Shown here one piece after another: positions 3,935 to 47,110 of a stretch of 64,000 nucleotides of DNA. Positions within the stretch are counted from its first letter, which is position 1, and each line of letters opens with the position of its first letter. The DNA is from Deinococcales bacterium (GTDB lineage: Bacteria > Deinococcota > Deinococci > Deinococcales > JAAFIG01), in contig JAYWGM010000094.1 of assembly GCA_043778225.1 (NCBI GenBank), forward strand, positions 1 through 64,000, given 5' to 3'. The notes below the pieces were generated by a model. That model did not search any database. It was not told the DNA's origin and worked only from the letters and a program-made list of their open reading frames with translations. The position numbers and the translations under genes are program-made.

Positions 3935-3999
3935 GCTTCTGCTCGAGCCTCGCGCTTGGTGCTTGGGCAGGTCGCGGAATCTCGAGCAAGAAAAACCCC
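3935..3999. repeat. 65-bp direct repeat A, copy 2
   Basis: Identical to 1050-1114. Confidence 0.95.
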
Positions 4000-43322: not shown

Positions 43323-43763
43323 TTAGAAATGGATTTGCCGATAAACCAGATACGCCAGTAAACACGTCTTGACCGACCAAGCAATGGTGCGAATCCAGTT
43401 GCTCGAGACTAAAATCTGGTGCGCCTGTGCATTAAAGCCAGCACTCAAAATACTGTGTTGTGGCACTTGCAAAAAAAACGTACTCAGCCACACCACACCA
43501 ACCAAAACAGCACAGACCCAAGGACACCAAAATGGCACTTCTTTGAGGCTCGAGCCAAGAAAAAGACCAGACAAGACCAACTCGAGCAGCATTGGCACAA
43601 GCACAATCCCCGAGATTCTTAGCGAGTGCGCCGCTTCAAAAGCACTAAAGTTAGCGCGGTCTGCCATCTCAAAAAGTGGATAATGCACCACTTGAATTGT
43701 CCAGATAAGACCCGTCAGGTACGCCCCGACAACCAGATTTGCCAGCAGTACAAGTTTGTCCAT
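43323..43763 (-). CDS. Conserved membrane protein
   Basis: GLIWTIQVVHYP, QVPQH and NWIRT motifs; 4 TM segments. Confidence 0.75.
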   Translation of the reverse strand: MDKLVLLANLVVGAYLTGLIWTIQVVHYPLFEMADRANFSAFEAAHSLRISGIVLVPMLLELVLSGLFLGSSLKEVPFWCPWVCAVLVGVVWLSTFFLQVPQHSILSAGFNAQAHQILVSSNWIRTIAWSVKTCLLAYLVYRQIHF

Positions 43764-43837
43764 GATTTCAAAATACGTTCTTGGTAGGAAGGATTCAAGG
43801 GCGAACACGACGTTTTGAGCAGATGGTGGTTTTTTTG

Positions 43838-43875
43838 CTCGAGACACGCTTTCAGGCTTTAAGCCAAGGCTCGAG
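43838..43875. repeat. CTCGAG-bounded cassette repeat B, copy 1
   Basis: CTCGAGacacgctttcaggctttaagccaaggCTCGAG. Confidence 0.9.
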
Positions 43876-43918
43876 AATGATAAGGATACAAGTACAGTCT
43901 TGAATCTATTGTTATGTG

Positions 43919-43937
43919 TAACGATATACGTTATAAT
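43919..43937 (+). promoter_or_regulatory. higBA operator overlapping the -10 box
   Basis: TAACG-atata-CGTTA palindrome overlapping TATAAT, 5 nt before the ATG. Confidence 0.65.
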
Positions 43938-43942
43938 TCAAT

Positions 43943-44236
43943 ATGATTATCGGGTTTCGTAATTCTGGGACAGACGATATTTTTAATGGATTGGATACAA
44001 AAGCCGCTCGAGCAACCTGCCCAGAAAATATTCTTCGGGTTGCACGACGAAAACTTGACCAGATAAACCAAGCTATTGACTTACGGGATTTGTTCGCACC
44101 GCCGGGTAATCGTCTCGAGCCACTAATCGGAAATCGGTTAGGGCAACACAGTATTCGTATTAACGAGCAATTTCGGATTTGTTTTATCTGGACTCAAAAC
44201 GGTGCGACAGACGTAGAAATAACGGATTATCATTAA
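43943..44236 (+). CDS. higB: RelE/ParE superfamily HigB (plasmid-killer type) toxin
   Basis: ARRKLD, PPGNRLE.L.G, GQHSIRINEQFRICF and VEITDYH. Confidence 0.93.
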   Translation: MIIGFRNSGTDDIFNGLDTKAARATCPENILRVARRKLDQINQAIDLRDLFAPPGNRLEPLIGNRLGQHSIRINEQFRICFIWTQNGATDVEITDYH

Positions 44237-44257
44237 GCAAAAAAATAAGGAGTTAAA

Positions 44258-44566
44258 ATGCGAATTCCAACCAACCGAACCCCAACCCATCCAGGCGAAA
44301 TGTTACTCGAGGATTTTCTTGTGCCACTCGGCATGACCCAACAAGATTTAGCCCAGCGATTACACGTTTCTTATCCACGAATTAACGAATTAATTCATGG
44401 TAAACGTGGTGTAACTCCAGATACAGCTTTGCGTTTAGCCAAATTATTTGGCACAAGCCCTGAGTTTTGGTTAAACGGGCAATTGGCATGGGATTTATTT
44501 CAAGCCATGCACTCAGCAAAAATGCTTGGAGTGGCAGAAATCCAGCCGCTCGAGCAGATGGCTTAG
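44258..44566 (+). CDS. higA: HigA family addiction module antitoxin
   Basis: HPGEML.EDFL, GKRGVTPDTALRL and FWLNGQ. Confidence 0.93.
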   Translation: MRIPTNRTPTHPGEMLLEDFLVPLGMTQQDLAQRLHVSYPRINELIHGKRGVTPDTALRLAKLFGTSPEFWLNGQLAWDLFQAMHSAKMLGVAEIQPLEQMA

Positions 44567-44569
44567 TTA

Positions 44570-44605
44570 CTCGAGACACGCCAAAGGCATAAGCCGAGGC
44601 TCGAG
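44570..44605. repeat. CTCGAG-bounded cassette repeat B, copy 2
   Basis: CTCGAGacacgccaaaggcataagccgaggCTCGAG. Confidence 0.9.
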
Positions 44606-44610
44606 TAAGT

Positions 44611-45045
44611 TTACTTCGTATCAAGCAACTGCAATACTTGTGAAATTTTCAAGACTAAAAGTTTTTCACTTGGATTCACCAAACTCTGATACAAATCTTG
44701 GGTATTTTGTGAAACCAGCCAATCGGCTTTATTTTTAATCGCAATCCCAATAATCCAATCATCATCAGCGTCAGGTGAACGTTTCCCCATTCGACGATTA
44801 GCAACAAAGACCGCCCGTTGTCGCAAAATCAGCAACAAATCCTCTAAATCTTCGAGTGCAATGTATTGTCGTGCATCTCGAGTTTGAAAATACTGTTGCA
44901 CAACCCCAATCAACTCTTCGATTTGCAAAGCCGATGTCAGCAGCACAAAACGTTTCATTCGCCAAAAGTACATTAGGCGTTTTGCGCCAACACCACCGAG
45001 CAAAAACGAAACGTAAACATTGGTGTCAAAAACGACTTGGAGCAT
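44611..45045 (-). CDS. PIN-domain putative toxin
   Basis: VVFDTNVYVS, EEL, DADDD and ADWLVS..DL. Confidence 0.88.
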   Translation of the reverse strand: MLQVVFDTNVYVSFLLGGVGAKRLMYFWRMKRFVLLTSALQIEELIGVVQQYFQTRDARQYIALEDLEDLLLILRQRAVFVANRRMGKRSPDADDDWIIGIAIKNKADWLVSQNTQDLYQSLVNPSEKLLVLKISQVLQLLDTK

Positions 45046-45260
45046 TAACCACGACGATAATTTTGCACAGCCATTACTGCTAACATATCGGCTTCGTCAT
45101 CAGGCATGGAATCTTTACCCATCAGACGGTCAAAAGCAGCTTCGGTCTTAGCGATAACCAACAATCTTTCTATGGCTTGGGAAGTGTTAAGCCCATACTG
45201 CATTTGATACGCCTCGAGTTGAGAAGCAATTGGTTGCTCGAGTTGAAGAGTTCGTAACAT
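45045..45260 (-). CDS. Putative antitoxin (RHH-like)
   Basis: Small gene coupled upstream of the PIN gene; NTSQAIERLL. Confidence 0.65.
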   Translation of the reverse strand: MLRTLQLEQPIASQLEAYQMQYGLNTSQAIERLLVIAKTEAAFDRLMGKDSMPDDEADMLAVMAVQNYRRG

Positions 45261-45283
45261 ATGGGCATTGTAGCAGAGTTTTA

Positions 45284-45320
45284 CTCGAGACACGCCAAAG
45301 GCTTTAAGCCAAGGCTCGAG
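45284..45320. repeat. CTCGAG-bounded cassette repeat B, copy 3
   Basis: CTCGAGacacgccaaaggctttaagccaaggCTCGAG. Confidence 0.9.
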
Positions 45321-45372
45321 AATAGTGTGAGGGATGAGAATATGGTTGAAAAGATTGAGGTTAGGCTGTCTA

Positions 45373-45780
45373 TCAGGTAAAAGAGATATTATTTTTTGTT
45401 AGCACCCTCTTTAATTCACTTTCTAGTAGCGCCCTATTTTCGTATAACGCAATTATGAAAAAACCACTTTTGCTTTGATTAGTTTTTGTACAATACAAAG
45501 CGTCTGATTTATCTTCAAAACCGTCAACTTGAATAACATTGGTGAAAAACACTTTTCTTTTGAAAATTAATGTTCTAATTGCAATATAATCATCATGTAT
45601 CTCAAGGGTGTTAGTCAAAATTGTGCTGCAACCAATTATAGTTGCAAAAATACCTAAAGGAATCATGTGATCAACTTGAGTAGAATCAGCAGTGAAATAG
45701 TAAATACTGCCACCTAAAGTAATAACTAGAGTCAAAAAAAAGAAGAAAATCTTCACTGATTTTTTAGGGCTAAATTTCAC
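45373..45780 (-). CDS. AT-rich 2-TM hypothetical protein (PH-like / immunity-like)
   Basis: Two TM segments then a beta-rich domain; low GC, no CTCGAG seen. Confidence 0.6.
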   Translation of the reverse strand: MKFSPKKSVKIFFFFLTLVITLGGSIYYFTADSTQVDHMIPLGIFATIIGCSTILTNTLEIHDDYIAIRTLIFKRKVFFTNVIQVDGFEDKSDALYCTKTNQSKSGFFIIALYENRALLESELKRVLTKNNISFT

Positions 45781-45835
45781 TTATTGCTCCTAGAGTTGCC
45801 TTGGGTGGGAATTTACCCACCCATTCCAAATTATT

Positions 45836-47110
45836 TTATTTCTTCGCAGCCTCGAGTATCACGCTCTCGAGAACATCGGCGGCAAATTTGGCATCTTCGG
45901 CTGTCAGCACAAGCGGCGGCGCGAGGCGTATGGCGTGGCTGCCAGCGCCAAGTAATATCAAGCCTTTCTCGAGGGCAAGTTTTTGTACCATATCGCGCAT
46001 TTCTGGGTTCTCGAGCTTAGAAGTGGCATCTTTGACAAATTCGAGTCCAATCATTAAACCGCGTCCGCGCACATCGCCGAGTTCTGGCACTCGAGCTTGC
46101 ACGGCTTTCATGCGCTCAAGCAAATACGCGCCTTGCACATTGGCATTTTCCATTGCGCCATTCTCGAGAACATCCAGTGTGGCTAGGGCGGCGGCGCTCG
46201 AGACGGGGTTGCCGCCAAAAGTTGTGCCGTGTGCGCCCGGTCCCCAAGTTGAAATGCTGTCTTTGAACATCACCGCGCTAATTGGGTAGCCACTTGCCAA
46301 GCCTTTTGCCAGTACCACAATGTCTGGCTTGACGTTATCGGCTTCACAAGCTAGGAATTGCCCAGTGCGCCCAACGCCTGTTTGCACTTCATCGGCAACC
46401 AACAAAATTCCGTGTTTGTCGCAGACTTCGCGCAGTTGGCGCATAAATCCGACGGGTGGCACAATGTAGCCGCCTTCGCCTTGGATTGGTTCGACAAAAA
46501 TCGCGGCGACTTCTTCGGCTGGGGTGGTGTGCTTAAATAAATACTCGAGATGCTCGAGTACCATTTGGCTGGTGCGCGGGTATTTATATGGCTGTGGGTA
46601 CGGTGCATGAAACACACCCGGCACGAGGTTGCCAAAGCCTTTGCGGTACTTAGACACACTAGCGGTTAGGCTTAACGCGCCCATGCTGCGCCCGTGGAAA
46701 CTGCCTGTGAACGCAATGTAGTACGGGCGTTTGGTGTGATACCGTGCTAATTTCATGGCGGCTTCGATGCCTTCTGTGCCAGAATTGCCAAAGAAAACAC
46801 GATAATCCTCACCGACGTGTTTTTTGAGGCGTTCGGCAAGTTCAATCTGAGGCTCGGAAGCAAAGACCGCAAAGCACAAATGCTGCACTTTGGCAGCTTG
46901 TTCTTGGACAGCTTTGACCACGGCTGGGTGAGCGTATCCCGTGGTATTAACGGCAATTCCAGCCATCATGTCTAAAAATTTATTGCCGTCTAAGTCGGTC
47001 AGCCAGCAGCCCTCTCCGTGCGATACAACCATCGGAAAAGAGACTGCATTGGAGGTGCTTAAAGAATTGGCATAACGTTCGAGTATTGCTTTTGATTTGG
47101 TAAAATCCAT
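45836..47110 (-). CDS. Class III PLP aminotransferase (GabT/ArgD-like)
   Basis: NSGTEG.EAA, SFHGRS, EPIQGEGG, DEVQTG.GRTG, AKG and HGTTFGGNP. Confidence 0.93.
   Translation of the reverse strand: MDFTKSKAILERYANSLSTSNAVSFPMVVSHGEGCWLTDLDGNKFLDMMAGIAVNTTGYAHPAVVKAVQEQAAKVQHLCFAVFASEPQIELAERLKKHVGEDYRVFFGNSGTEGIEAAMKLARYHTKRPYYIAFTGSFHGRSMGALSLTASVSKYRKGFGNLVPGVFHAPYPQPYKYPRTSQMVLEHLEYLFKHTTPAEEVAAIFVEPIQGEGGYIVPPVGFMRQLREVCDKHGILLVADEVQTGVGRTGQFLACEADNVKPDIVVLAKGLASGYPISAVMFKDSISTWGPGAHGTTFGGNPVSSAAALATLDVLENGAMENANVQGAYLLERMKAVQARVPELGDVRGRGLMIGLEFVKDATSKLENPEMRDMVQKLALEKGLILLGAGSHAIRLAPPLVLTAEDAKFAADVLESVILEAAKK

Follow-up and report, generated by a model that had tools for sequence, protein, structure and literature searches.

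Outside integrons and plasmids, little is understood of how toxin-antitoxin (TA) modules move and come together in islands. In integrons, the attC sites are about 57-141 nt long. The pdif sites of plasmid modules, 28 bp long, consist of two 11-bp arms around a 6-bp spacer and alternate in orientation. The attC sites also occur in clusters without an integron-integrase, termed CALINs (Cury et al. 2016, PMC4889954), and Acinetobacter plasmids carry dif modules bounded by pdif sites of XerC/XerD (PMC13141974, PMC6449649). Restriction-modification (R-M) units, in turn, were described to insert with long target duplication, leaving repeats longer than 30 bp that have no further copy in the genome and in many cases extend into the 3' end of a gene, and these cases are mostly from competent species, including Thermus thermophilus (Furuta et al. 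2010, PMC2853133). Here we describe a row of small TA modules bounded by a 36-38-nt direct repeat in a 64-kb window (the whole stretch of DNA analysed) from the source genome G000, a 4.03-Mb assembly of an uncultured Deinococcales bacterium in 107 contigs. Unrelated TA families share this one short junction, whole modules come and go there, and the usual machinery is not visible. Our results showed that this TA array is real, modular and restricted to one lineage, and that its junction sequence is of a new kind. The literature search found no paper describing repeat-bounded TA arrays in Deinococcota, which is not proof that none exists, and no integron of Deinococcota turned up in the searches made here.

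Three direct repeats were present where the first-pass annotation of this DNA had placed them, all on the plus strand and far beyond chance expectation (Table 1). The window contained seven matches to the 5' word (at most one mismatch) and four to the 3' word (at most two mismatches), and none of 100 shuffles equalled either count. A profile made from the three copies and searched against the whole assembly returned those three alone (E 2.5e-14 to 2.2e-12), the next-best match being partial with an E value of 0.022. Of 64 matches to a covariance model in the window, the three repeats scored 59-70 bits and the other 61 scored 21.6 bits or less. All three copies lie at one locus, and a dispersed repeat of the REP/MITE type was ruled out on the same evidence from the profile and the covariance model. 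The repeats followed one another at 732/730 nt and then at 714/715 nt, and they bracketed exactly one higBA operon and one operon of a PIN-domain toxin with its putative antitoxin. Pfam agreed with this claimed gene content, with the partner of the PIN toxin falling in no family. The stop codon of higA was 3 nt before repeat 2 and that of the PIN gene 5 nt after it, as the annotation had measured (3-5 bp).

The distribution of the repeat was narrow. The covariance model, which was built from 18 of the 19 strong copies so that those 18 match by construction, was searched against 8 genomes at the level of the genus, 19 at that of the family and 151 at that of the order Deinococcales. The 19 strong copies (46.6-73.7 bits) were confined to four genomes at every level (4/8, 4/19 and 4/151), namely G000 and its uncultured Deinococcales sisters G001, G003 and G005, which had five or six copies each on one or two contigs each. 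These carriers are the closest relatives as judged by the flanking gene, with identities of 86-87% to G000 and 91-92% among G001, G003 and G005, compared with 78-84% to the non-carriers G006 and G007. All four are incomplete metagenome bins (84-94% complete) and three are close kin, so that the copies of the repeat are not independent. The weak matches of less than 35 bits that were inspected, in G006, G014, G015, G018, G011, G009, G005 and G001, lay inside ordinary coding genes and were rejected. Scans with a degenerate pattern gave 20 stretches in metagenomes, all with single matches of 17.5 bits or less and none a true copy, 21 stretches in the genome collection, of which 18 had single matches and none added a true copy, and no match in viral contigs.

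Comparison of the four carriers showed that the repeat bounds other modules as well. When 41 related genomes were searched at the DNA level, G001 and G003 proved to have the PIN cassette together with its two repeats, in a row that adjoins the same aminotransferase gene as in G000, and further copies of the repeat stood 420-870 nt apart in these two genomes and in G005. The array of G001 had four repeats, that of G003 five, and G005 had six over two short contigs (C178 and C585). The modules were two-gene pairs of TA type and one small-ORF (open reading frame) module, in either orientation. Besides the MazF module, two of the pairs, B and A, could be assigned to no TA type: module B consists of a weakly matching RHH protein and a 113-aa protein, and module A of a 126-aa protein and an HTH_31 protein. 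Pfam backed MazF (PF02452, E 2.6e-19), the HTH protein of module A and the DUF1905 protein, and the other small proteins of the relatives' arrays matched no Pfam or NCBIfam family.

Module-sized differences between the genomes end at repeats. The homology between G001 and G003 (96.1% over 1430 nt) began at the first base of a repeat and stopped 7 nt past another, beyond which G003 had two extra modules. In contig C178 of G005 the 56-aa module passed directly to MazF, while G001 had PIN between them, and in C585 PIN passed directly to B, while G003 had MazF between them; the PIN module of C585 also had a 361-nt internal deletion. In X3, a freshwater run from another study, one contig had repeat 1 followed by higB, but its left flank was a different one that set in at 43833, 5 nt ahead of the repeat, and a second contig joined 45328 to 45835, skipping the 135-aa ORF. 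The cassette boundaries proposed by the annotation were therefore borne out in that the repeat bounds other modules in sister genomes and modules are present or absent at repeats, but the order of the modules was never permuted. Likewise, of the shuffled or empty alleles that it had asked for, whole-module presence and absence was found, whereas a permuted order and an unoccupied site were not. No reordering was seen in any array of G000, G001, G003 and G005, and no gain was documented. A single order, higBA / B-like / 56-aa / X / PIN / MazF / B / A, accommodated all contigs, and because of this, deletions between direct repeats could explain every difference.

Table 1. Features in and beside the TA array of the window, and gene orders of the arrays in the four carrier genomes, all written in the plus orientation of the repeat (r)
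Feature	Position in window	Strand	Remarks
Left flank, small membrane-like ORF, outside the array	43323-43763	-	146 aa from ATG; 174 aa from GTG 43847
higA-end remnant GAGCAGATGG	43817-43826	+	10 nt identical to the last higA coding bases, 11 nt before repeat 1
Repeat 1	43838-43875	+	38 nt; covariance model 59.2 bits
higBA promoter-like site TTGTTA-17-TATAAT	43909-43937	+	consensus scan only; inside the cassette, separate from the repeat
higB toxin, 97 aa	43943-44236	+	PF05015, E 2.1e-12
higA antitoxin, 102 aa, HTH_3	44258-44566	+	PF01381, E 2.3e-12
Repeat 2, between two convergent operons	44570-44605	+	36 nt; covariance model 64.6 bits
PIN-domain toxin (PIN_3), 144 aa	44611-45045	-	PF13470, E 4.2e-14; TIGR00305, 41.5 bits
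Putative PIN antitoxin, 71 aa	45045-45260	-	ATG common to G001 and G003; no family
Repeat 3, terminal	45284-45320	+	37 nt; covariance model 70.2 bits
Conserved flank after terminal repeat (AATRGYGTG...)	45321-45348	+	13-28 nt common to the array ends of G001, G003 and G005
Variable ORF, 135 aa	45373-45780	-	no family; between the array and the aminotransferase
Class-III aminotransferase	45836-47110	-	PF00202, E 4e-126; conserved anchor in G000, G001 and G003
Gene order, G000			membrane ORF, r, higBA, r, PIN, r, 135-aa ORF, aminotransferase
Gene order, G001			DUF1905 gene, r, 56-aa ORF, r, PIN, r, MazF, r, 102-aa ORF, aminotransferase
Gene order, G003			contig end, r, PIN, r, MazF, r, B, r, A, r, 167-aa ORF, aminotransferase
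Gene order, G005 C178			B-like end, r, 56-aa, r, MazF, r
Gene order, G005 C585			gatB, r, PIN, r, B, r, start of A

The repeats themselves also bore marks of exchange. Repeat 3 of G000 was a mosaic, its 5' 22 nt being identical to repeat 2 and its 3' 25 nt to repeat 1 (both counts include flank), and its centre matched the terminal repeat of G003. Read from its sequence, such a mosaic is the expected remainder of a deletion or conversion between repeats. At two junctions with missing modules, the hybrid repeats agreed with different parents at aligned position 11, which weakly counts against one fixed crossover point, as it rests on single bases. The cassettes were 95-98% identical among G001, G003 and G005, above the 90.7-92.1% of the flanking housekeeping DNA of G001 and G003, and this hints at exchange between lineages. 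The flank of G003 and G005 was a mosaic as well (91.8-97.7%), and general recombination may therefore be enough to explain this.

Across the family the repeat was 36-39 nt long with a mean column identity of 76%, and took the form of an imperfect palindrome of 36-38 nt with partial dyad symmetry. Of the 18 aligned copies, 15 fitted the consensus over the 3' 15 nt (AAGCCRAGGCTCGAG). Predicted folding was moderate (z -1.4 to -4.6, the middle copy being the best), only the outer 6-bp stem was predicted and conserved, and no pair of the predicted stem showed a compensatory change. The GGC..GCC mini-hairpin described in the annotation was present in all three copies of G000, but it was found in only 6 of the 18 aligned copies of the family, and no compensating change was seen. 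An Rfam search of the repeat gave no match at E values up to 1. The first-pass annotation had also regarded the repeats as attachment sites built on the iterated CTCGAG palindrome of this genome, an idea for which the evidence proved weak. CTCGAG occurred 24,877 times in G000 (one per 162 bp), adjacent pairs 30-32 nt apart occurred 365 times genome-wide, and 5 of the 18 aligned copies had CTTGAG or TTCGAG in place of the 5' CTCGAG of the repeat. The CTCGAG ends are thus unremarkable, because the hexamer is common genome-wide and its 5' copy is often mutated. The distances between neighbouring CTCGAG sites peaked at multiples of 3 (207 at 21 nt versus 62 at 20 nt), which fits a hexamer written in frame into coding DNA. 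A general class of CTCGAG-bounded hairpins was ruled out, with this 3-nt coding periodicity alone and no peak at 30-32 nt. Within the cassette bodies, CTCGAG was as dense as is native to this genome (4 sites in 694 nt, 3 in 678 nt), which implied that the cassettes are not recent imports from outside the lineage.

The likeness proposed between these repeats and "repeat A" of another array at 1-8 kb of the window was at background level (17.9 bits with the covariance model). The suggestion that one recombination system built both arrays was thus left unsupported, and a common system was rejected at this sensitivity. That region contained identical 65-nt repeats at 1050-1114 and 3935-3999, 2885 nt apart, which belong to a set of repeated units of about 2.9 kb and form a family separate from the repeat of the TA array.

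The sequence around the left-most repeats connected the repeat with higA. A shared AGCAGA upstream of the repeats had been noted, and the observation held for repeats 1 and 2, which are both flanked by the 10-nt match GAGCAGATGG from the end of higA, but repeat 3 had only GCAGAG. Remnants of the higA end preceded the left-most repeat in three arrays (10 nt in G000, 17/18 nt in G001 and 14 nt in G005), where alone such a remnant is kept, and for this reason the origin of the repeat is tied to higBA. At a second locus of G001, near ftsZ, an intact higBA had a repeat just past its stop codon, and upstream of it stood a degenerate repeat that itself followed 32 nt (94% identical) from the 3' region of higA. 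The higBA homologs of the array-less G007 and G017 had no repeat. From these sequences, the repeat seems to have begun as the 3' flank of the higBA module.

The explanation that we prefer, tentatively and at a probability of roughly 45%, is a lineage-specific TA array that grew at one duplicated target and was reshaped through short-homology recombination. Each module would be self-contained, with its own promoter side and stop side in either orientation, and the repeat would be the duplicated target or junction sequence, originally the stretch just downstream of higA. New modules would join at the target and duplicate it each time, either through Campbell-type insertion or through "insertion with long target duplication". 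Later, modules would be lost, converted or exchanged between lineages by the general short-homology recombination of the host, with RecA or single-strand annealing, possibly after natural transformation, as the candidate routes and with no integron-type integrase involved. The array itself, the module-sized differences with homology that breaks at repeat edges, the higA remnants at the left ends and the lack of IntI, attC cores and further copies of the site are observations, from which we infer the insertion mode of the modules and the acting enzymes. If the explanation is true, the array shows how a single TA locus can become modular and exchangeable through a short duplicated target in naturally transformable bacteria, and the long-target-duplication route known for R-M units would be extended.

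Several points weigh against it. No genome with a single unoccupied repeat was found, and therefore no insertion event is documented; synteny was broken at both candidate empty sites, including the ftsZ locus, and G006 and G002 had no repeat beside the aminotransferase. A length of 36-38 nt with mismatches is short for exchange of the RecA type. The last 9 nt of the repeat were invariant in all 18 aligned copies, even where the centre differed, and selection for a site bound by a protein may lie behind this. Selection is also a possible cause of the higher identity of the cassettes, and the assemblies of the incomplete bins may have missed a recombinase gene.

The invariant 3' end, together with the partial dyad symmetry, also speaks for a true site-specific cassette system, in which the repeat would be an attachment site, a dedicated recombinase would be encoded elsewhere, and modules would leave as circles and be recaptured at another copy. 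This is appreciably less probable than the duplicated-target explanation. It would account for the direct repeats at every module border, the two orientations of the modules and the homology breaks at the repeat edges; the second-locus higBA of G001 with its one downstream repeat fits a unit of gene plus site; and chromosomal integrons typically contain TA cassettes that bring promoters of their own (PMC13108822). In its fullest form, which we regard as rather doubtful, an undescribed Deinococcota integron analogue would have a recombinase acting in trans and a minimal, hairpin-capable site of 36-38 nt derived from the higA 3' flank. It is just as unlikely that TA and possibly other modules were captured as circles into a private, exchangeable addiction or defence island beside a housekeeping gene. 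If a dedicated enzyme does act on the site, this would be a compact new cassette system with a 36-nt site, and it is directly testable. The tests for the machinery weighed on the other side. The best score to the integron-integrase model NCBIfam TIGR02249 was 56.9 bits against a cut-off of 265 bits, and none of the eight genus genomes passed. No attC core pair (RYYYAAC/GTTRRRY) stood at any border of the array, so that an attC reading was rejected on the core motif; the one pair in 43700-45450 was inside the higA coding region, against a window background of 10 pairs in 64 kb. Both absences reported by the annotation, of an integrase and of attC cores, hold. G000 encoded three tyrosine recombinases (contigs C75, C93 and C32), which could act in trans, and one IS200/IS605-type transposase, none of them near the array, and no serine recombinase was found in G000, G003 and G005. 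PF00589 was present in all eight genus genomes, PF00239 in G004 and G001 alone, and PF01797 in seven of the eight, and a phyletic search of these genomes for a carrier-specific recombinase yielded no clear candidate. The PF01797 copy of G000 was part of an IS200/IS605-type element (C28:83600-84600, 150 bits) followed by a TnpB-like ORF as judged by eye; its Y1 transposase, the sole HUH transposase match in G000, is unrelated to the array. None of the 19 strong copies in the four carriers stood beside a recombinase, no copy of the site as such lay outside arrays, and the order in all arrays was colinear without compensatory changes in the stem. The distance between the two CTCGAG end arms varied with repeat length (36-39 nt), which fits poorly with two recombinase monomers binding at a fixed spacing. 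No alternative junction was seen in the two runs holding this DNA, possibly its source, which are kept as contigs with rare variants dropped and are thus uninformative on rare excision. The site-specific recombination proposed in the annotation is shown by nothing at this locus, with no recombinase near the arrays and no site copy beside any recombinase.

It is improbable, and more so than a cassette system, that the arrays are decaying relics of one ancestral array of at least 7 or 8 modules that arose once and now only loses modules by deletion. The single order that fits every contig, the internal deletion in the PIN module of G005 and the higA remnants at the left ends are all consistent with such decay, and in Deinococcus radiodurans repeats have been reported to undergo single-strand annealing with one another (PMC4627823). 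Four closely related genomes would, however, have to have lost modules many times independently, and the two contigs of G005 agree with a single order only on the assumption that two strains or two loci contributed them. Decay would also leave unexplained why cassettes are more alike between species than flanking genes, and why the same sequence bounds every module. Least probable of all is a role in expression, with the repeat serving as a hairpin insulator or terminator between operons or as part of a promoter, and with recombination being incidental. The repeat always lay next to an operon on its stop side, at 1-8 nt in four modules and at 37 nt in one, its fold was moderate, and the -35 position of the PIN operon, placed by eye, would fall in repeat 3. 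Promoters and terminators were called by consensus scans, and the terminator scan flagged no repeat, nor did a T-run follow the repeats. The conservation of the outer stem alone without covariation and the lack of an Rfam match also disagree with such a role, and one near-identical sequence that stands beside unrelated TA families at a single locus, with no copy in the rest of the genome, is unlike a general signal.

Some features in and around the array deserve description. TACAAT was seen by eye 6 nt upstream of the ATG of the PIN antitoxin (window 45261-45300, minus strand), a position which suggests a leaderless transcript with the -35 element then inside repeat 3; an alternative start would give the PIN partner 82 aa (45045-45293, minus strand). 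The module with the 56-aa ORF alone was 386 nt long and occurred in G001 (L014 652-822) and G005 (L016 426-596). The protein, which belongs to no family, has a very basic N-terminal half and a hydrophobic tail, and by its sequence resembles the small membrane toxins of type I systems. The left-flank ORF of G000 matched no Pfam or NCBIfam family. On the right, a slot extended from the terminal repeat to the terminator hairpin of the aminotransferase (window 45321-45835, L014 2292-2661 in G001 and L013 5372-5923 in G003). Each genome had a different small ORF there (135 aa in G000, 102 aa in G001 and 167 aa in G003), none with a family, and the slot may be a further variable one that has no right-hand repeat. 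A homolog of the 135-aa ORF was found in G004 (L008 1-230, C154) in another context, downstream of an ORF whose C-terminus we take to resemble Rpn/YhgA-type nucleases. Elsewhere in G001 (C314, L017 1320-1946), a two-gene PIN-like pair of 129 aa and 78 aa was identified by eye without a copy of the repeat. The genes that flank it were about 70 nt apart in G000 (C58:8257-8328), pointing to another TA insertion or deletion.

The array has several features of integrons and CALINs: small gene units stand in a row, a short repeated site that could form a hairpin lies at each of their borders, and whole units differ between relatives. As in CALINs, no integrase is near it, and TA units with their own promoters are likewise common in chromosomal integrons (PMC13108822). 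The array is nevertheless not an integron, since it has no IntI, no attC cores, no extra site beside a recombinase and no covariation. Unlike integrons, it occurs in a genus without IntI, its borders lack cores, and its sites, at 36-39 nt, are shorter than attC and near-identical in sequence, whereas attC sites, which have extrahelical bases, are alike in fold only. Neither attI nor Pc was found at this array, and its content is restricted to two-gene TA-type modules and one small-ORF module.

With the dif modules of Acinetobacter plasmids (PMC13141974, PMC6449649) the array has in common that short sites flank small accessory modules, many of them TA, that the modules contain no recombinase gene, and that modules vary between relatives, those of the plasmids by shuffling; it nevertheless does not look like a set of Xer dif modules. 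It differs in that all 19 copies are direct within arrays, are 36-39 nt long and have no dif-like arms as judged by eye against the pdif consensus, and in that the array is chromosomal and not plasmid-borne. In the long target duplication of R-M units (PMC2853133), addictive two-gene units insert without a mobility gene, and the inserts here contain TA genes only; the flanking direct repeats, longer than 30 bp and unique in the genome there, are 36-38 nt long here with only three copies in the assembly, and the repeat abuts the 3' end of a gene, here higA. In contrast to those cases, the units are TA modules, a relative with a single unoccupied target was not found, and repeated use of one target has produced up to five repeats in a row. 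By this analogy, the long target duplication of R-M units would be the closest mechanistic precedent for the TA array.

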